The notes under the pieces are model-generated. The model worked only from the letters and a program-made list of their open reading frames with translations. It had not been told where the DNA came from and ran no database searches. Position numbers and translations under genes: made by a program. A DNA stretch of 64,000 nt, taken from Cyanidioschyzon merolae (lineage: Eukaryota). The DNA is taken from the NCBI GenBank assembly GCA_000091205.1, contig AP006500.2. One strand, given 5' to 3'. The number at the start of each line of letters is the position of its first letter. Position 1 is the stretch's first letter. Of this stretch, positions 1 to 42,266 are shown in pieces.

Positions 1-330
1 TTATGCGGGCGTGGTGTGTTGGGCTTAAAGATAGTTGTTCTTTGATGAATAGTTTGTGACTAGTTTGCATCGCGCTCAGTGAGCGCACCTCGGAGATCAG
101 GCAGGCATGAGACACGACGCACATGCCGTTGTTGAAGGGGAACGTGATCCTGATCTCTAGCATGTAGATCTATTGTAAACGTTGTATTTTCGTTCAGGCC
201 ATAGCAACGTACAGTCTTTCAGTTCGATTGTGCTTCAAACCTCAAACAAGTCTAGTCAAGTGTTTTTTCGCAGTATATAACAGAAGGGTTCAAAGAGCGT
301 TCTTTCTCAAAAAACAAAAAAAGGAAAGCT

Positions 331-2761
331 ATGAAAAAGCAAGTGCACGATCCTGGAGGCCCAGTGTCGCCGGCTGCCAGAAAAAAACAAAAAACAGTGT
401 CGAGTCCAGAAGAAAAGGAAGAGAAGAAGGACCGAAAGGGGGATGCCCTACGTCGAAGGCGGCAAGAAAGACGACTGTACGACGAGATGGTGGTGAAAGC
501 CTTCCTTCTTGGACATATCAAGGATCCCTACAGGGAAAAGTTGCGAGACGCTATCGAAATACGTGTCGACTCGTACTCCAAGAGTATTGTCAAGGCGTTG
601 TCAGGACTGATGCATTTGGCGAGGGAGATGTATCGCGACGTGACGCACATGCAAACGGTCGAGATTCCAGACGATATCTTCGACAAGACGTTTATTCGCC
701 ACCTGATGCTTGGTACAGGGGAGATGCGGAGGGAAAATGAGCAGTACATGCCGTACACGAAAACTTCGCGCAATTCCGCTTCGAAGGTAATCGATACAGC
801 GGTGACGGAAATATTGACACATACGGAGTGAAAAAGTACATCACGAATCTGAAGAACCATCTGATCGTGAACCTCGAACGTTTCATGATACGCGCCGTAT
901 TTGGACTCTACCCGGGCATCTCTCGCTATGGGAAATGGGCGATTATCAACGGCATCACGAACGATCGCAAGCATGAAGATGAGGTCGAATTTGTTGACCA
1001 GAAGGCGTCAAAAGAGAGCACGAATGAAGCTGCTGTGATCCGTGCGGTTGGACAAGAGCATCGTGTGGTGCTCGGGCTGGTGCATCCAGCAGAAAAGGTA
1101 TAAGAGTTGAAAAAAGATAAGGAAAGATACGATTGTCTCCTCCTACGGTATTTCGTGTTTTTGGACCGTGAACTCGATCGCAAAGCGGAGATGAAGCTGA
1201 GTGAAGAGACAAATGGAGAGTGGGAGAGACGGAAGAATTTCCTAATGGGGAAGTGCTTCAACGTCGTTCCGTCATGCAATGCCAAGTCACATTTTGTTAC
1301 TATCGACTCCAGAATCCCTCACGGCATCATGAAGGAGATCAGTCCGGAGTTCAATGTTAACAGGGAGGAATTCTCCGGTGAAAACCGGATGACGTACTGG
1401 AAGAACATCTTCGATTTCAAACGCCTGAGAGTGAGCAAGCAAAAAGTGTTCACTGGGATAATCGAAACCGATGGAGTAGCCTTGTGTGTACACTATCGGC
1501 GGTTGAAGACAGATCAGCCAGTCCCTCCCTCGGCTGCGCCCATGACGAAGGATGAAGAAAACAAAGAGGCGGGTCCTGCAATGCAAGAGGTGGAGGACAA
1601 CGACTTTGTCGTTGGCGCGGCGGAGCATGAAGAAAACAAAGAGGAGAATCCTACGACTCAGTAGGTAGAGAATAACGACCTTGTCGTTGACGTAACGAAG
1701 GATGAAGATGAGAAGGAAGCGGACCCTGTGATGCAGGAGCTGAGGGGGAACGACCTCATCGTTGACGCGGCGAAGCATGAAGAAAACAAGAAGGCGGGCT
1801 CTGAGAAGCAGAAAGTGCAGGATAACGACTTTGCCGTTGGCGCTGACCCCGGAAACACAAATATCATAAGCATCGCAGCACCCACGCGCGCGGAAAATGG
1901 TACTCACGGTAACTTACGTCAGAAAGACATGCGTCTATTGAGGTTCTCGAGAGCGATATACAATCGATAATCGGGAATCATGAATGCGAGGAAGAAAATT
2001 GAGGCATGGAATGCAGGAATGGAGGATCACCTGGAAGCTATGAGCGAGGTGACGAGCTGCGGAGCGGACTTTGAAGCTTTTCGGAAATTCATGGAAGTTC
2101 ATAGTACCCATTGAGATGCGCTGTGGGAGGAGTATACAAAGCCCCGGTGGGCTCGTCTGCGTATGAATCTATACGGTGGGAGGCAGCGCGCATTCGCGAA
2201 TTTTTTCAATCAGTTGAGCTCCCTAAAGGAGGACGAGAGTCAGAGGCTCGTAGTAGCGTACGGAGCAGGGCGCTTGAAGACCCAAAAAAGGGGCTACGCC
2301 AGCTCCAACGACGAGAACGTACAAGGAGTGTGCACGGCGTTTTGTTACGATACCTGTAGATGAGTTTCGAGCATCCTATGCACACCGTGAACTGGGGTGT
2401 ACACTCCAGAGAGCGGAGATGGAAAAGTGCCAGAGGAGCCCTGAGGATATAAAAAAGTACGGACCGCTGACGGAGGAGCAAATGGAAAGGAGGGCAAAAG
2501 TGCGAGGGCAACTCGCGTTGGTGAGTACAACCCCCAAGCGGCAAGAAACGTATGGAGTTTGTGAACCGAGAATTTAACGCTGCCACCAATATCAGACGAT
2601 GTGCAGTGCTGGAGGAAAGACCTTCAAAGAAGACAAGAGTGAACTTTGTTGGACAACCTATCAAAGTCGAACTATATAAGAAAAAGTTGGAAGCAGTAGC
2701 AGGTAGCCTGTCCAAAAAGACCGGCAGGCGTCTACACTCCAGTTGGAGACTTCTTGTCTAG
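331..2761 (+). pseudogene. Fanzor/TnpB-like RuvC nuclease ORF interrupted by in-frame stops and frameshifts
   Basis: Frame +1 ORF 331-831 begins MKKQVHDPGGP. Frame 0 is readable from 828 to 2363 but carries in-frame stops at 1101 (TAA), 1662 (TAG), 1968 (TAA) and 2112 (TGA). There are frame changes near 830 and near 2335. The C-terminal RuvC-III region lies in frame +2 at 2552-2761. Confidence 0.6.
1500..1870 (+). repeat. Degenerate 75-80 bp internal tandem repeat (about 3.5 units) duplicating the RuvC-I coding segment
   Basis: Repeated peptides are [46 protein letters not shown] and [12 protein letters not shown]. Only the last unit keeps the GxDPG motif. Confidence 0.6.
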
Positions 2762-2833
2762 GCCGCGTTCGCCACTACTGTACACCGCTGGCGACAACGT
2801 TTTTCTTTTGAAAGGCGTTTGTTGTTGACGGTG

Positions 2834-14027: not shown

Positions 14028-14396
14028 CTAGGCAGTAGCTTCCATAGCGCGGTAACTTGCGGCATTCATGCTTCCACAGGGCCTAAGTTCGCGTCCGCGA
14101 TCCCACACAATGGACAAGTGAACTCCGCCGGGTGTGTCCTGCACCTCCGCCATCGACTGGGTTCGCTCAACGCATCCCCGGGGATTCGAGTTTGTGTATT
14201 GCTTCGGGTTTTCTTCATTGTAGATATCTAGGCTCAACGTCCCTTGCCTCATTTTCCGGGATGCTCGACAGTGGTGGGTATCCGAGGCATCCACCAGTGC
14301 CCCGCTCCAAATATGACGAGGCCCGTCTCGTTTCGGACAGGCCTTCTTAATGGCTTCCAACTGAATTGTGTTATACCCCCAGGTGCGCGTCATCAA
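14028..14396 (-). CDS. Small hypothetical ORF (122 aa) with a weak MsrB/Mss4-like C-terminal resemblance
   Basis: The segment GGVHLSIVWDRGRELRPCGSMNAASY loosely resembles MsrB GGHLGHVFDDGP...RYCINSAAL. Its 5' end abuts Fanzor-derived copy B. Confidence 0.25.
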   Translation of the reverse strand: MMTRTWGYNTIQLEAIKKACPKRDGPRHIWSGALVDASDTHHCRASRKMRQGTLSLDIYNEENPKQYTNSNPRGCVERTQSMAEVQDTPGGVHLSIVWDRGRELRPCGSMNAASYRAMEATA

Positions 14397-14907
14397 GTGC
14401 TTTTTTTCGCGGTTTACAGCAGAAGCGTTCCAAGTGTGTTTATTTTCAAAAAAAAAATCGAGGGCATGTTATGGACATGCAAGTCAGGGATCCTGGTGGG
14501 CCTCTATCGCTGGGTGCCGGAGAAAAACAAGAAAATCCTCATGTGATCGAGCGTCGAGCGAAGAAGAGCAGCTGGCGGAGAATCAGAAAAAGAATACTAG
14601 GGGCGATAAGCGAGATACGGTTTTCACCCGGCTGTACGATGACGAGACTCTTGCCGTACAGCGGGCACGAGTTGCAGTGATCTTTGTACTGGTTCCATCA
14701 ACCAGTTGCAATAGAATCGCGGAGTTCGTGAACCGAGATTCCATCGCCGTCATGGTTGTCAGCCGATTTACGTTGCTGAAGAGGAGACCCGCGGCGCTCA
14801 CGCGAGCCAACTTGTGGGTCAGCCTCCCCGGCTCGGAGTGTACAAGGAGAAACAGAGCCCGATAGCAGTCAGCCGGTCAAAAACGGCTGGGAGGCGTCTC
14901 CTTCCGG
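14349..14907 (+). mobile_element. Non-autonomous internally deleted Fanzor-family element (copy B)
   Basis: The 5' end actgaattgtg...tcaagtgctttttttcgcgg and the ORF start ATGGACATGCAAGTCAGGGATCCTGGTGGGCC match copy A. A remnant EFVNRDSIAV is followed by the 3' module gatagcagtcagccggtcaaaaacggctgggaggcgtctcc. Confidence 0.65.
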
Positions 14908-16862
14908 GTATTAAGTTTCGCTCCATGGTCTTGAAACGTCTATGGCTTTGCGGACTATCTAACTCGCCGGAAAATCGGGCTGTGCTGCAGTAGTATTTCA
15001 GCGCTTCCCTGTGGTTTCCTCTGTTGCTTCGTTTTCGTTCTCTTTGATGCAGAGTCAAGGAGACCGAACGAGTGCCCTTGAATTCAGGATCAAAGGAAAA
15101 ACGTGGTATCGCGTTGACAAGGTTTCAACTGATGACTCGAACAACCCGACGAATGTTTGCTGTGTCGAACATCGCGAAACGATTGGGTATCGTGCCAACG
15201 TGTCTTCCTGGTGCATCCATGTCGTATTTAAATACAACATTGAACTGCTCGCACTGGCCCTGCTTTTCGATCTTATTCCAGAACTTGTCTAGATATACAG
15301 CGTCGACATTCGGTGTGGGACCATAGCGCCGTCCGGATTCATATATGGATTTAGAGTTCTCGGTTGTGATTTGGGATAGGCTTCATTGTCGCCTTGGCAC
15401 TGGAATGCTTAACTTCACCGGATTCAGGATGATTCGCAACATCCCTGACCAAGGATGCGTAAAATAATCGATACCATTATCCACTGCATATGTACAAGAG
15501 TACACGCTTCTCATTTCCTAAGGTGTAGCACGCTCAACTCTAGCATTTTTCAAATTCCGATTTTCTGTTTCAGCGACACTCGAGAGCGCAGCAATGCGTT
15601 CCGCTTCATTGGCGATGCGGGAGACTCGACGTCGCCGCTTGGGGACCTGTTCACAAGCTCATGCCTAACGTTCACTGAGCATGTAACCTCAAACAATTAC
15701 TTCTGATCGAAGAGGCAAATCGTTCTGTCGTTGAGGCCACTGACGAAACCGTATTCGACGGCATCGTCATGTCTCCCGCGGAATATGTCCCCAGAAGCTC
15801 CTCTTGCCTTCTGTTTCTTTCTGTAGGGAAGTATCATGGACTCGGGCTTGAGTCATCAGAGCAATGGCTTCCGGTGAGGCGTGCGTCATCGCCTTGCGCA
15901 AAGGCAGCATGGACGGATCGGAAATTCTCGACTCGGTCTCCAGCAAGAATTCGCCTTCCGGTACTTGTTTGATCGTAGACAGCATCGCGTTGAACAAATC
16001 GTGTATCGAATGCGACAACGTGTGTTTGCTCGTGCCGCGTCCAGGAAACGCTCCGAGCGGATCACCCAGACAAAGTCCAGTATCGTATTCTACGGCACCG
16101 GGCCCCGAAACGGAGGTTTGGATCCAAGAGAGCCCTCTCCATCTATGAAAAGCACGTACCGAGCGCGATGAATCAAGCGTTCATGCGCGGCAGAGTAGTT
16201 CCCAGAAAAAAAAAGCATATAGAAGGTGGACGTACGCGAACATCTACCCACAGTCAAGTGTCATCGATACGAATCGCGCGCCGAGGCGGTGTACAAAGGA
16301 AACAAAAAGCCCACGCGATGTATCGATCGTAACTTTTCCCGCTGCATGGAATGCGTCGATTAAAGCCGGAAGCAGCAAAGTCGGAATTCAAACGCTGCGA
16401 TCAACATCCTTAGACTGCTTACAGACGATCTCGAGGGAAAGGAGAAACCGTCGAACGTAAACCTAGAAATAAAACATAGGAAATACAGCTTTCGCAGAGC
16501 AATCCTTCAAAGGCTGGTGTTGATAACAACGGGAAGAAGCTCCAGTTTATTGTGTACATTCGAGTTCATGAAATGAACCCGTTCCATTTTATGCCGACAT
16601 TCCTGGAGCGGCACGACAGGCAACGCAACGACCTGCCGGCTGGCGACGCGTAGACCGTGGCGCCACCCCGTGTCCCGCACCGCACGGCACCGCACAGCAA
16701 CGCGCTCTTCAAGCGTACGCTCTCTGAACGCCGGGTGTGTCGTCAACGACGAACGCCCCTGAGCCGAAACCCTGTGAGTCCTTCACAAGAGTCTGGTGTT
16801 TCTAAATTGCTGTGAGCGCGTGCGGTGGGGTTTTCTTGGCCTGCTTTTGGATCGAAACTCGA

Positions 16863-25846: not shown

Positions 25847-27162
25847 TCGCGACGGTTCCAGTTAGGTCCTGGTGCCAACCAGAGCGCTTTTGAAGGAAAG
25901 GATCGTCCCCGAGGCCGGGGTCTGCTGAGAACTCCAGCCCTGTCCGAGGCAAACGTGGACCGTTCGCGTCACCGTTCAGTGGACGGGGGCTCCATTCATT
26001 GTTGCAGCACGCACTGCCAGAGAGCCTGATCGTCCAGAGTAACTTGTACCGAAGCCGCTAACGCTCAACCAAAGCTCCGGCACGGCGGACTCCAGGGTAT
26101 CCAAAGTGGGAAGGTTTGTCGCTGCACTGCGTCAAACAGTTTCCTAGAGCAAAGTTGCGTTCCAAGTCGGGTCTTCTCTAGTCTTGCAGGTCAATAGTGT
26201 TCCGCACCGGACGTGTGTCAAAGCGTGCGATTTCATGGTAGAGAGCATGCGATCGAAATCACGATGCAATATACCATACAGATCGTGGACGAAATGCCTG
26301 TACGACATATGCTTTACTGAACAGTACAAGGAGGACTGCAATCTTTCTTCGGGTGAGTCGTACATCAGTGCTCAAATGGCTGAGGATCACTGCAAGAGAG
26401 AAGGATATGCTCTCCGTGCCAAAAACTGATATGTTCAAAGTCTGCTTCCAGTCTATGGCAGGGAACGGCCCGTTGATCACCTTACGGAAAGCGAAAGCGA
26501 CGATAGCGGCTGGCACAGGCATCCCTGTTTCACAACCTCTTGTTCGCGTGGTCCTTAAAACACTGGGAAAAAAGTCGTAATAAAACAGTCCTAGTTCACG
26601 AACGCCCATTTTCCACCGAAATCGCATCTGCAGTATTCCTGGAGCGTTGAGATCCGCGTGAAGCGCGTGGACATTGGTTTGTTTTTTCAGTCGACGAGCC
26701 TCCCTTCGGACGAAACGGTCGGGACGTACATGGGTATTCGGGGTGAAGGGAGCTTGGTGTCCAAACGATTGAACTCGGAGAGATCGACAAGATCCTCTGT
26801 GGTCGTTACAAGGGATTCATCTGGCGGCCTCAGTTTCGCTCTTGCAGAATACTCAGACAACAGCACCCGCTATGTCGAATCATCGAAGAGTTTTCCCTGG
26901 CGTTTGGTGACTTGATTGAAAAACGTGGTATTTCACCATTCGCCTTGCATTCGAGCGTTTGCCGATTCTATCAGGGGTATAGCTGTTTTCCATTCCTTCG
27001 TAGAGTCCATGGTTCAACCACGCATCGACGGATGATTTTCTATCGCGAAGCGTATTGATCGCTCCACTGGGCAAATCGCTGGAGCGTTCACCAAGGTGAG
27101 CCGGGGGCAAATGTCGACTTTCTTCCTCAAGTCCCTCTCACGCCGAGAAGGCCCTCAACTAG

Positions 27163-27559
27163 GGACATCACGCAGTGCATTCATTTTCAAAAATAAGAAA
27201 TCTAATGGATGCGCTGGGTTGTACACCTCAAAAGGTTGGGATGGAGAGAAGGCAGTGGAGCGCTTCGGCGATTGAAAAGCACGGAGAGCTGACAGAGCAC
27301 CAAACGGCACTGAGGGCAAGAGTTCGAGGAATCCTTGCAATGATGAGTACCACCAGCATCAGTAATCGCATGGAATTCGTAAACCGAGGCTTCAACGCTG
27401 CTATCCATATCAGACGATGTACGTTGTTGAAGACGAGACCCGGGGATTTGAGGCGAACCAACTTCCTGGGGCAGCCTCTGATGCTCGAAGTGTGCCTAAA
27501 GAAACTGATTCCGATCGCATGCGGCAGATCAAAAAGACTGGGCGGCGCCCGTCAGTTGG
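27163..27559 (+). mobile_element. Non-autonomous internally deleted Fanzor-family element (copy C)
   Basis: The 5' start of the ORF is retained (ATGGATGCG...). The ORF 27175-27564 encodes RARVRGILAMMSTTSISNRMEFVNRGFNAAIHIRRC, colinear with the copy A C-terminus. It ends with the 3' module gatcgcatgcggcagatcaaaaagactgggcggcgcccgtcagttgg. Confidence 0.65.
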
Positions 27560-28358
27560 TATGAATTCAGTCTGTATTCATTTATAGGAACAGAAACGAA
27601 CCTTTATTTAGGAGCGAGATAACAATCCCGTTCTCTATCTACGATAAGCGTTGATAGGGGGAAAGTTTCCGCATGGTCGAGAGTTCGCCTTCTAGGCGGA
27701 AGGCCAGCGAGACGGACGAGTCTACCAAGCTCGTGCTTCATGCTTCCTCCAGTGGCAAGTGTTTTAGTGAGATCTGAGCAGCTCGTCCGCAAAACGCAGC
27801 TCATTCTGGGATCAGGTGCAGTTAGGCTGCATCTGGGCGTCGCCCTGGTCGCAGTGGACTCCTAGGATATCGCTTCACGCTGCCGCAGGCTGTACGTCTG
27901 CCAGTGCAGCTTGCAGGCTCGCAGAATGATCATATACTTCGACTCCGTATCAGGTGAAGCGTTCCTCGATCCGACGTGCTCAGTGGCGTGCCAAAGCCGT
28001 TCTATCCCCATGATACATCTGCTCCAGCGATATAAGCGCCACGGCGAGCGCACAAAACAGGTACTCGGTGAACGATACAACATACGAAACGGCCAGTATA
28101 TCCGAAAGCAAGTATGGGAGATGGAAATTCAAGGTAGTTGCTTCATGACGGGCGCTTTCCCGAAAGCCATGATCCATCCCGCAATCTGGGATTCACGGTC
28201 TATGTAAACGTATTTGCATCGAAAAGGAATCGGACATAAGTGCGGGAACCGCTTTCTGTCGAGAGCGACGTTCCCTTGTATGCCCGTGGCCTCCTCTGGC
28301 TGTGCACGGTCTTCATGCGTCGTTCGCTTCCATCTTTTCCTGATTTGAGACGCTGAGG

Positions 28359-33060: not shown

Positions 33061-34684
33061 ACATTCGGCCATGTAGAGGAAAAGGAGAAGAAACTTCCAA
33101 GTCATTGAAGAAACAGATCTTTCGGGAACGAGGACACAAAAAGCCGGGAACGAAGAACAGTCGGTACGGGGAAGATCTATATCAAACAAGTTGCAAAGGC
33201 TGCACGACGAATACAGATCGACTGAGGGCCTCCTCCACAAAGTACGGCACAGCACGCCACTAGGGATCGCAGTGCTTGTCGCTCGAGGAAGGCTCGGCTA
33301 GCTTCTCACGCCCTGGCGCCCACTGCCAAGCAACTGTTCGCTGGCGTTCCGGACGCAGGGCTACCAGCTTCTCTCATTCGTCTGGAATGTGGCGATCAAA
33401 ACTTTGTGCAACAACACAGCTGATGCTTTGGACAGACGATGCAAGACGAGTTCATCATAGGATCAGGGGTGCGCACCCGTGCTTTTCCATAATACATTGA
33501 CGCGTTGGCATGCCATATCGGCGATCAAAGCATCTACAGTCCAGACATCGAAACGTTTGAGACCATTTTCGAAAAGCCAAGAGTATCAGCGGATCAATGT
33601 CGAGCGCTTCGTGCAGCGCACCATGGGGGCATTCTACCTAAAGCTTGCTGACCCAGAAAAATTCGGGACTGATGGAAGCGATTCCACCTACATGGAGTAC
33701 ATGAGCGTCCGACTGGCTCATGCGGACGACCTGTGGCAGGAGTCCACGGGATAGCGCCGCTGTTGCCAACGGTTCCGGGTACGTGGATGCGAGAATCGTG
33801 CATGAGGAAACCCTCTCTCTATAACCTGGAAAACGACATGACCGATCATTTGCCTTGCTCGATGTTGTTAGCCTATGGCGTTTGGCATGCTGTAGCGCGC
33901 GGCGAGGGGTGCACGCTTGTCGTTTATACAGGAGCGCATAACGAGATTAGGACGTGATACGAACATCGCGAGCACTGGTGCCGCTCAGACACTTGAGGCG
34001 AGAGAAAGAGCGAAACAGAGCCGGATGTATAGGATAGTACGCATGATGCTGACCGAACGTCAGCTTGCGAGGCAATCGCTCATGAGAGGCTTGCAATAGG
34101 ACGATTCCACGAGCAACCACGCGGACAAACACATTCCCACCGGGAGTTGAACGCCTCGATCCACGTCGAGAAAATGTCTCGCACCTCCGTAACTTCCAGC
34201 GGTATTGCTTCGATCGGGCTGTGGACGGAATCGTTTAGTACTCAGTATGGGCATCGTGCTGGAAAGCTGAAGACTGACGATGCAAAACACCATTGGCTAG
34301 GATAGATGGCATTGGATTCTCGCGTGGACCAAGGCACCGGTATGGTGCTGTTCAGCAATCCAGCAAAACTAGAGCGCCACATATGTATTCACTGGGAACG
34401 ATATTCTGTGCCCAGTGGTGGTAGATAACGATGGTCCATGATTTGATGTTGTTGTGAAATCCCCAATTGTACACAAGTTTCCGTAGAATGGCACCAGGAG
34501 CGTAGGCGCTGTGGCAACCACGGTTCCCGTAGGTCCTCGCGACAGCAGTGCGGTACAGCTACGAACTGACAGGTATAACCCGAACAGCGCTGGTTCCGGA
34601 GTCCTAGTGCCAGAACGTCAGCAGCAGCGGTTGTAGAAGTCGTATGGGCGGTGGTCGGTATTGCAACCTGGCTTTCACCGACTG

Positions 34685-40560: not shown

Positions 40561-40918
40561 CTCACGGAAGACGACTGCAGGCTCCGGGAGGCTTATCGCG
40601 CCGGTCAAGCACCTTGTCAGATGTCGAGGCTCAACGCTGGTGCGTATGGGCGAACTCAAATACGTGTCCACCGGATCAAGGGCACGATGTAAGCTCCAAT
40701 GATCATGAGACGCAATGAATTAGTCAAGTCCTACATAATCGGTTCCCCTGAGGCGCAAAGAGACAGCAGCTTGGGCAGGACTGTGAATTGGTCGCTGTCC
40801 TGCGAGCCTAGTGAAAGAACGGTGTTGCTTCGTGGTCGTTTCGTGGACCCTGACAACCGAGACAAACCGCTCTGTCAATTCTTTCTCCGGAATTGTGTTC
40901 CGCCCCCCAGATGTGTGT

Positions 40919-41417
40919 ACTGAATTGCTTTTTCACAATTTATACCATGCGCATTCGAAGTATGTTTATTTGAGGAAACAGAAATCTAAGTGAAAGGCAT
41001 GGACATGCAAGTCGGCAATCCTGGATGACAGTCAATGCCGGCTGCCGGAAACAATCCTCCTCTTGTCGACCATCGAGCGCAGAGGCGCAAGTGACGACGA
41101 AGACGAAGAGGGCGAATAGGCGAAAAACAGTGCCTCCCGACGGGACGATAACGAGACTTTTGTCGCACAGAGGGTACGGGTCTGAGAAATCCTTGCAAAG
41201 GTGCGTTCAACCGGTGTCAATGTACGCAAGGAGTTCGTGAGCCCAGACCTCAACGCCGCCGTCAATATCACACAATGTGTAGCACTGGAGACTAGACCCG
41301 CGGAGCCGACGCGAGCGAACTTTGCAGGGCATCCTCTCCCGCTCGATGTGTACAAGCAGAAACTAAAACCGATAGCAGTCGGACGGTCGAAAAGGGATGG
41401 GAGGCGTCTTCCAATGG
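40919..41417 (+). mobile_element. Non-autonomous internally deleted Fanzor-family element (copy D)
   Basis: The 5' end actgaattgcttttt and the ORF start ATGGACATGCAAGTCGGCAATCCTGGA are retained. A remnant KEFVSPDLNAAVNITQC (RuvC-III with D intact) is followed by the 3' module gatagcagtcggacggtcgaaaagggatgggaggcgtcttccaatgg. Confidence 0.65.
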
Positions 41418-41750
41418 TTTTCCATTTACCCTACACGGTCGTGGGACATTTTTTGTTTCACGAACATTTATGTATATTGGGGAATAATTGCATCAGAGAG
41501 GTGATTGTTGCTTGCTTCCGCTTGTGGTGATCCACGCCGACATCTCCACACCATCGAAGAACGATGTGCATCCGTCCGCAAATGACGCATCCCGCACATG
41601 CCTCCTGCTCCTACGATGACTGTCTATACGTTGACGATGCGAACCAAGCCAAAGACAAGTTTAAACAGAAAAACCTCGCTTTCGTCGCGCGATGTCGTTG
41701 ATATGCAGCGCCGGTCGGGATCACTCCTGTTCACGGGTACGCACCGTGCG

Positions 41751-42266
41751 TTATTCATCATCGGGATCTTTGGAGTCATCGAGACTCCAGCGCAACGATT
41801 CCACTTCGTGTTTCAGGCGAAGAGTCGACTCTCTGATTTTGGTGGCAAGAAGCTCGCCCTCCTCAATCTCGTCATCGGTGAGGCTGCGTTTTGCCCGCCA
41901 GTCCATCGTTCGGACTAGAACATGGGCACCGGAGGTCGCTTCCGGAAAAGGACACGGCAAAAGCACTGTCGACACGTAGCCGGTATAACGTGCGTCATTT
42001 CGTAGCTCGAGGAGAATATTTTTCCGCTCCTCGTCGATTGTGACGCGCTCCTCAACGAGGCGACCATCTGAAAAGTACAGACGTCGATCGTGCTGTTGTC
42101 GAAACCTAGCAACACCTGTGGGATCCTCAGCAACTGAAAGAGGTACAATTTCAGCCCGCTCAAGTCCGGGCATAAACTGTTCGTCACTCTGGAGCTTGTC
42201 AAGCAGTAAACCCCAGAGCACATCCAGGTCTGCGTGAATAAGTGCGGCGTACGTTGCTGTCGGCAT
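41751..42266 (-). CDS. Hypothetical protein, possible SRPBCC/START-like N-terminal domain with an acidic coiled-coil C-terminus
   Basis: A 171-aa ORF with ATG at 42264-42266, reading MPTATYAALIHADLDVLWGLLLDKLQSDEQFMPG. The fold assignment is weak. Confidence 0.35.
   Translation of the reverse strand: MPTATYAALIHADLDVLWGLLLDKLQSDEQFMPGLERAEIVPLSVAEDPTGVARFRQQHDRRLYFSDGRLVEERVTIDEERKNILLELRNDARYTGYVSTVLLPCPFPEATSGAHVLVRTMDWRAKRSLTDDEIEEGELLATKIRESTLRLKHEVESLRWSLDDSKDPDDE

Follow-up and report, generated by a model that had tools for sequence, protein, structure and literature searches.

An internally deleted Fanzor1 derivative on chromosome 18 of Cyanidioschyzon merolae, probably a decayed copy of a short non-autonomous family

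The locus and its Fanzor-related copies

The DNA analysed here (the window, 64,000 nucleotides) belongs to the 1.25-Mb chromosome 18 of Cyanidioschyzon merolae 10D, and nine of its ORFs match annotated proteins of this strain exactly (XP_005538583-95). Comparison of the window with itself reveals four related copies of a Fanzor-like element, A, B, C and D, all on the plus strand. Copy D, the subject of this work, lies in an intergenic region of 1190 bp at which a histone-fold gene and CMR361C meet tail to tail. The copies and the neighbours of D are as follows.

1-2819, plus strand: copy A, a full-length Fanzor1 pseudogene of the CMe-1A type, whose 5' end lies beyond the start of the window
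14345-14955, plus strand: copy B, a short copy of the B/D type with the same junction as D; it keeps NRD and has a 165-aa ORF
27125-27602, plus strand: copy C, a different internal-deletion derivative whose RuvC-III motif reads RGFNAA
39919-40560, plus strand: histone-fold gene, neighbour of D
40873-41466, plus strand: the whole of element D, delimited by conservation in an alignment of 13 copies; the ends are accurate to about ±10 nt
41751-42266, minus strand: CMR361C, neighbour of D

Copy A has its ATG at position 331, is interrupted by frameshifts and stops, and carries the RuvC-III motif REFNAATNI. On the 3' side it directly abuts the KTI12 ORF (from 2819). Between 1545 and 1843 it contains a 75-bp tandem repeat (approximately four units) that encodes an acidic sequence, DNDFVV..EENKE.., just upstream of RuvC-I; the near-intact homologue P0001 (locus L001, 7146-7450) has this segment too, likewise in repeated form. 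An environmental allele of copy A (L039, same locus, Ga0078972_1003174) differs from it at 34 positions in 3.26 kb, and 26 of these fall within a single 340-bp tract (window 2447-2787). The tract covers RuvC-III, which reads REFNAATNI in the window and RDFNAAINI in the allele. It looks like the product of ectopic gene conversion between Fanzor copies, or possibly of a chimeric assembly.

A very weak match to the Fanzor profile at 33686-33748 (plus strand; E 0.11), accompanied by scattered tblastn matches at 33226-33811, was judged not significant and was rejected as a Fanzor copy. It could be a much older relic or a chance match.

Architecture of element D

Conservation among the short copies extends from approximately 17 nt upstream of GAATTGTGTT (near 40873) to approximately 55-65 nt past GGAGGCGTCT (about 41466). 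The extent of 40919-41417 previously given for D is thus too narrow at both ends. Within these limits the following parts can be distinguished.

40873-40998, plus strand: non-coding 5' leader of approximately 125 nt, with homologous sequence upstream of the Fanzor1 ATG in copy A, in L001 and in all short copies
40999-41028, plus strand: remnant of the ORF start, MDMQVGNPG followed by TGA, which aligns with MKKQVHDPGGP in A and MDMQVRDPGGP in B
41029-41143, plus strand: frameshifted remnant of the basic (Lys/Arg-rich) N-terminal region, recognized by alignment
41144-41158, plus strand: the family-wide deletion junction, GACGATAACGAGACT in D and GACGATGACGAGACT in the consensus
41159-41409, plus strand: C-terminal coding remnant of approximately 84 codons (HMM E 2.8e-11)
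41410-41466, plus strand: 3' non-coding tail of the short-family type, which differs from the CMe-1A-type tail

Positions 40890-41409 of D align with 14363-14899 of B at 69% identity (E 1.6e-45, window self-comparison). A 228-400 is the counterpart of the 5' leader and ATG of D, and A ~2468-2733 that of its 3' part (D 41224-41409 corresponds to A 2548-2733). This similarity to A and B is far beyond what chance would be expected to give. The sequence-only reading had described D as an internally deleted Fanzor derivative and had staked this on colinearity with copy A; this colinearity holds, for both ends of A, the full-length copy, and for B as well.

The same reading had listed a leader and an ORF start, MDMQVGNPG, with an immediate stop, followed by a C-terminal peptide with RuvC-III and a 3' tail, and all of these are found. 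The peptide KEFVSPDLNAAVNI...GRSKRDGRRL lies in an ORF at 41201-41530, as does KEFVSPDLNAAVNITQCVALETRPAEPTRANFAGHPLPLDVYKQKLKPIAVGRSKRDGRRL. The RuvC-III motif, EFVSPDLNAAVNI, occupies 41231-41269 with its Asp codon (GAC) at 41246-41248, and the C-terminal remnant contains an in-frame TGA at 41183-41185. The basic remnant RRKTVPPDG holds as a string, being encoded within the D ORF 41025-41240. It does not represent the homologous frame, which reads RRDDNETFVAQRVRV across the breakpoint and then stops (the corresponding frame of B reads TRLYDDETLAVQRARV); over this region the short-family consensus reads ...SSRRPSSEEEQVTKKKKKRGDRREKVFARR.

The tail of D contains a terminal hairpin with a stem formed by 41439-41448 and 41454-41463, G-U pairs included, which is partly conserved among the short copies.

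A deletion junction shared by many loci

The junction GACGATGACGAGACT is common to B, D and at least 11 loci in environmental C. merolae contigs. It joins the N-terminal '..RRLYDE' of the long protein to the C-terminal 'EEQMERRAKVRG', and B and D align to each other straight across the breakpoint. At the DNA level the long form reads ..ACGATGA|AATGG.. on the N side and ..CGC|TGACGGAG.. on the C side, and the short form reads ..ACGATGACGAG.., with an apparent TGA microhomology at the breakpoint. The deleted segment has no GT...AG boundaries and the element no poly-A tail; an origin by splicing or as a retrocopy was therefore rejected.

A scan of metagenomes found at least 80 loci, which reduce to at least 40 distinct copies (11 short and 29 long). 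The scan was made by four-sequence alignment and detects only copies that still match two search peptides, so that all counts are lower bounds. With the window included there are at least 13 independent short copies (B, D, L012, L014, L018, L019, L022, L025, L032, L058, L066, L067 and L077). All 13 have the same junction and the same termini, and their flanks cannot be aligned between loci; orthologues of each short-copy locus in other strains align through the flanks. The ORFs P0149, P0153, P0154, P0161 and P0163 carry the same ..ARRDDDETV.AQRARVRG.. fusion. Since the breakpoint is identical at B, D and at least 11 further loci, one deletion derivative of approximately 600 bp has been amplified in a MITE-like manner. 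On sequence comparison, the B/D type is thus an amplified internal-deletion family with the same breakpoint and termini at several unrelated loci.

Other deletions exist beside this one. In copy C the leader occupies 27172-27210 and is joined without intervening sequence, at 27204-27218, to '..LGCTPQKVGMERRQW..', upstream of the breakpoint of the B/D type, and the ORF P0155 suggests yet another junction. Because the junctions of copy C and P0155 differ, internal deletions have arisen more than once, although the B/D type is the only one observed at many loci.

The majority consensus of the short family is 606 bp long. It runs MDMEVGDPGGPSSPGA... and, past a single uncertain indel in a run of A, continues with ...KKKKKRGDRREKVFARRDDDETVVAQRARVRGILALVSSTSGNKRMEFVNRDFNAAINIRRC...KLKPIAGGRSKKAGRRL; it would thus be essentially an in-frame fusion of the N- and C-terminal parts, of approximately 170 aa. 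The short subfamily is ~45-50% identical to the C-terminus of the long form at the amino-acid level, and its 3' half is ~70% identical to CMe-1A. B and D share subfamily-specific substitutions (KL.PIA, TRANF) that are absent from the long copies. A profile search with the C-termini of B, C and D for a full-length parent of this subfamily returned only ORFs of at most 178 aa.

In L014 (~1087-1330), L025 and L058, the usual 5' end of approximately 100 nt is replaced by another sequence, at least 200 bp long and common to all three, and the 3' two-thirds are standard. The short family is thus constant in its 3' half and variable in its 5' half, a pattern that recalls the 3'-biased retention in the Fanzor1 Helitron derivatives CRe-1/2/3 (Bao & Jurka).

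The parent Fanzor1 family

The Fanzor1 family CMe-1A was listed for C. merolae by Bao & Jurka (2013, Mob DNA 4:12; PMC3627910), and the parent family is therefore already known. It has ~150 copies, which are ~80% identical to a consensus of ~3 kb and include some with intact ORFs; it has no terminal inverted repeats (TIRs), and its target-site duplications (TSDs) are given as undetermined (PMC3627910). The same paper describes TE-N2_CMe, a non-autonomous C. merolae repeat of 635 bp with ~70 copies and no TIRs, which is 95% identical over its whole length to the 5' 635 bp of CMe-1A (PMC3627910). Internal deletions are frequent in Fanzor1 elements, and in CRe-1/2/3 the 3' end is preferentially kept (PMC3627910).

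A stitched translation of copy A has 38 environmental homologues at 50-75% identity. The best of them, P0001 (752 aa), contains RuvC-I, VDEFRTS (RuvC-II) and NRDFNAAINI (RuvC-III). The split triad of Asp (RuvC-I), Glu (RuvC-II) and Asp (RuvC-III, RDxNAAxNI) is present in P0001 and its relatives, and the corresponding columns are invariant or nearly so in an alignment of 13 proteins. A profile of these 13 members matches the structures of Fanzor1 from Parasitella parasitica (9cf0; E 1.7e-9, in two stretches that include DEFRTS...NRD) and from Spizellomyces punctatus (8gkh; E 3e-5). A single-sequence phmmer search against the PDB gave no match, and Pfam gave none for the ORF pieces of copy A, the ORF of D, P0001 or P0002. 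The distant members P0039-41 match PF07282 (Cas12f1-like_TNB) below the gathering score. Between RuvC-II and RuvC-III the putative zinc-finger region reads EFRTSYTHHELGCTLQRVEMEKCQRS, with HH...C in place of the first CxxC; P0041, one of the distant members, has CCATCG. Judged by the structure-profile matches and the published CMe-1A family, the predicted identity of the parent as a Fanzor1 holds.

The RuvC-III aspartate

D had been singled out as the only copy to retain an intact RuvC-III Asp. This proved incorrect: B (NRDS, GAT codon), 11 of the 13 short copies and all 29 long environmental copies also keep a GAY codon at this position. The two short copies without it are L067 (GAA) and L077 (CAC). 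Within the window it is missing only from A (GAA) and C (GGC), and the environmental allele of A, L039, reads RD. Given this wide retention, the Asp of D is an ancestral state that has survived by chance in a dead copy. The suggestion that D helps to infer the ancestral nuclease also loses its force, since little can be gained from a copy that belongs to a diverged short subfamily and has decayed neutrally. Near-intact long-form ORFs with NRDFNAAINI (P0001 and others) are better templates for the ancestral sequence.

As a nuclease gene D falls short in several respects: RuvC-I and RuvC-II are deleted, the ATG ORF stops after codon 9, and a TGA follows at 41183. Without RuvC-I and RuvC-II the fragment cannot be a nuclease.

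Decay of the short copies

Against the short-family consensus D shows 79.6% identity, its differences amounting to 122 substitutions and 14 indel columns; between short copies the identity is 60-72%. Over ~87 C-terminal codons the divergence of the short copies at codon positions 1, 2 and 3 is 0.170, 0.160 and 0.193 (p=0.16), or 0.182, 0.172 and 0.195 (p=0.47) after removal of the codons that belong to the search pattern. The values for the 87 C-terminal codons of the 29 long copies, which are only ~80% identical, are 0.073, 0.065 and 0.163 (p=6e-33), and 0.081, 0.072 and 0.162 (p=3e-22) after the same removal. The excess of third-position changes in the long copies indicates that the Fanzor1 protein was under purifying selection while the long family diversified. 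In the short copies the divergence is equal at the three positions; they decayed neutrally. The substitution spectrum is symmetric (ts/tv = 1.0), with no CpG depletion and no CpG-driven or RIP-like bias.

Across the window and 10 environmental contigs (99.5-99.75% identity), 10 variable positions fall within the 595 bp of D, against 11 in the remaining 1670 bp and a single one in CMR361C; D is thus the segment of highest polymorphism density in its neighbourhood. In three strains a 1-bp deletion at 41384 disrupts the C-terminal 'ORF' of D, and P0142 is the resulting frameshifted product.

Conservation along the short copies is uneven, the best blocks being EFVNRDF and the DDDE junction. These blocks coincide with the search peptides of the scan, and the unevenness was therefore rejected as a sign of constraint. 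It could hint at a cis element, but is at least partly an ascertainment effect.

An ORF of 109 aa with a GTG start (41201-41530, plus strand) was predicted to be a gene in several metagenome contigs (P0139; frameshifted variant P0142). It is spurious and consists of the Fanzor C-terminal remnant and flanking DNA.

Probable insertion of D between two conserved genes

D is fixed in the sampled population: each of the 13 environmental contigs spanning this site contains it, at 98.9-99.75% identity, and no empty site was found among them. In the related alga Cyanidiococcus yangmingshanensis the gene order TrmO - WD40 - GT8 - histone-fold - CMR361C-like - M28 peptidase is conserved, within a syntenic stretch of 19 kb (L095; JANCYV010000017.1, 250414-269368). 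Across the locus the two species share ~59% protein identity and ~71% coding-DNA identity. The intergenic region between the histone-fold and CMR361C-like genes of Cyanidiococcus measures 618 bp, against 1190 bp in C. merolae; the difference of 572 bp is approximately the length of D. No Fanzor similarity was detected anywhere in the 19-kb Cyanidiococcus stretch. The length difference and the absence of similarity fit an insertion of D in the C. merolae lineage after its split from Cyanidiococcus. Because the intergenic DNA of Cyanidiococcus cannot be aligned, the comparison gives no base-precise empty site, TSD or target motif.

Clusters of elements with at least 95% identity represent one locus in different strains, with flanks that align throughout. 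As every such cluster is the same locus across strains, there is no sign of recent transposition.

Termini and hairpins

An inverted-repeat search of D found no TIRs, only internal or weak inverted repeats, and duplicated flanks (TSDs) are not visible among the 13 short copies. The D family is therefore not a MITE family in the strict sense. The 5' end of the D family falls within the 5' region of CMe-1A, and A and L001 remain homologous for at least 170 bp further upstream. The tail of the short copies also differs from that of the long copies.

Helitron/Helitron2 and IS200/IS605-like single-strand transposons are recognized by defined termini (such as 5'-TC...CTRR-3' in Helitrons), subterminal hairpins, a fixed short target without a TSD, and a Rep/Hel or Y1 transposase as partner. 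D has a hairpin at its 3' end (41439-41463), and the long copies have one of a different form (A 2796-2819).

The long copies have three hairpin-like motifs after the GRRL codons (window 2740-2819, loci L027-L089). The first, AGACG-TTT-CGTCT, spans the stop codon; the second is formed by a GC-rich stem, GGCG..CGCC, and the third by a stem of 9-10 bp at the terminus (A 2796-2819; in others CGTCGTTCGA-CTT-TCGAACGGCG). These hairpins are candidate guide-RNA or right-end structures.

Origin of D and alternative explanations

We consider it very probable that D is a dead, neutrally decaying copy of a non-autonomous C. merolae transposon family of approximately 600 bp that arose from a Fanzor1 element by internal deletion. 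Such a family would go back to a single deletion of ~1.9 kb in an element related to CMe-1A, presumably by microhomology-mediated repair or slippage. The deletion would have retained ~270 bp of the 5' part (leader or putative promoter, ATG and ~50 codons of the basic N-terminus) and ~320 bp of the 3' part (the last ~88 codons, with RuvC-III, and the terminal tail of ~55-65 nt). The mini-element may then have been copied in trans to many loci by the machinery that moves Fanzor-only elements. The 3' portion, kept by every type of derivative, was probably needed in cis, since this is where the guide (omega/f) RNA and the right end are located in Fanzor/TnpB elements. D itself would have inserted between the histone-fold gene and CMR361C after the Cyanidiococcus split and become fixed; it has since gathered ~20% substitutions as well as indels. 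Neither a coding nor an RNA function can be detected in it now.

In one alternative, D or the active short family would be a protein-less satellite that supplies a guide RNA and uses Fanzor1 from full-length copies, with the RNA of D possibly still functional. Promoter and omega/fRNA 3' end would be kept, and the element would be retained or copied through RNA-guided cleavage and repair. In characterised Fanzors the 3' sequence adjoining the right end gives rise to the guide RNA, which can overlap with the ORF (PMC10530073), and the B/D-type, C and P0155-like derivatives all keep at least the last ~290 nt and the tail, while their 5' parts vary. D also has its terminal hairpin at 41439-41463, and an alignment of the short copies alone folds slightly better than its column shuffles, although the signal is weak (-16.8 kcal/mol against -4.7 +/- 2.7 for the shuffles and -10.7 for the opposite strand). 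However, the minimum free energy of the 3' module of D shows no excess stability over dinucleotide shuffles (z = -0.03), RNAalifold on all 43 copies yields -1.0 kcal/mol, essentially no consensus structure, and D has no match in Rfam. Moreover, the D region is locally the most polymorphic, indels included; the copies are 60-72% identical to one another, and none is young; and the conserved blocks are explained by search ascertainment. We therefore regard a present-day satellite role as very unlikely. The milder version, in which the short family was a guide-RNA-only parasite of Fanzor1 while it was active and D is a fossil of that system, strikes us as unlikely too, if somewhat less so.

It is highly improbable that D is the in-situ remnant of a full-length Fanzor1 that lost its interior at this site through a private deletion. 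Colinearity with both ends of A would be expected in that case as well, internal deletions are frequent in Fanzor1 elements (PMC3627910), and copy C shows that independent deletions occur. A private event does not account for the identical breakpoint and 5'/3' limits at no fewer than 13 unrelated loci, nor for the subfamily-specific substitutions that B and D share to the exclusion of the long copies. Scarcely credible is a small functional protein (the 109-aa ORF 41201-41530 or a mini-Fanzor N+C fusion), for although the short consensus is essentially in frame over the junction (~170 aa), B has a 165-aa ORF and gene callers predicted the 109-aa ORF on metagenome contigs (P0139), the ATG ORF of D ends after nine codons, its homologous frame has the TGA at 41183, the 109-aa ORF starts with GTG and extends into the flank, three strains carry the 1-bp deletion at 41384, codon positions evolve equally in the short copies, and Pfam gives no match.

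Relation to known elements

The reading of D as a decayed copy of a short, amplified deletion family places it closest to CMe-1A. Both occur in the same genome, and D shares with CMe-1A the 5' leader, the ATG, the N-terminal remnant and the C-terminal/RuvC-III region; in both, TIRs and TSDs are not visible and copies are ~80% identical to their own consensus. D differs in being ~600 bp rather than ~3 kb long, since it is without ~1.9 kb of the ORF; its 3' half is only ~70% identical, its tail after GGAGGCGTCT is different, its 5' end starts further in, and it belongs to a separate, neutrally evolved short subfamily. TE-N2_CMe is of similar size, likewise has no TIRs and is related to the 5' part of CMe-1A, so that the leader is probably shared with D. 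By its description it is nevertheless set apart from D, whose 3' half is derived from the 3'-terminal part of the Fanzor ORF.

Internally deleted DNA transposons such as those of the Ac/Ds system and CRe-1/2/3 offer a broader parallel: the ends are kept, the interior is lost and one product is amplified in trans. Microhomology at the breakpoint is a further likeness, as is the preferential retention of the 3' end, which was reported for CRe-1/2/3. Unlike MITEs in the strict sense, the D family has no TIRs or TSDs, and its parent encodes only Fanzor1 and no transposase. TnpB-only and omega-RNA-encoding IS200/IS605 elements resemble D in that the 3' end of the nuclease gene and the right end form the conserved part, the one that encodes the guide RNA (putatively so in the family of D), in the lack of TIRs and TSDs and in terminal hairpin-like motifs. 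D, however, is eukaryotic and nuclear, no TnpA is known for it, and no omega-RNA structure was found in it.

Significance

Taken alone, D is of little significance: it is a single, unremarkable fossil copy in a small genome that has been well studied, and the family from which its non-autonomous lineage branched off was already published. Its practical consequence for annotation is that the 109-aa ORF on metagenome contigs is spurious.

The family as a whole offers points of modest value. A single deletion derivative has reached at least 13 loci by amplification, so that the sequences required in cis lie within ~270 bp at the 5' side and ~320 bp at the 3' side, and these limits narrow the search for mobilisation signals and for the guide RNA. 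Should the satellite reading be true, the short family would be a eukaryotic counterpart of a 'guide-only' satellite, and the last ~300 nt common to all derivatives would be the minimal cis-acting Fanzor module. Finally, the contrast between neutral decay in the short copies and purifying selection in the long copies puts numbers to the remark of Bao & Jurka that CMe-1A has long maintained its coding capacity. The selection on the long copies supports a real function of Fanzor1 in the life cycle of an element that has no transposase.
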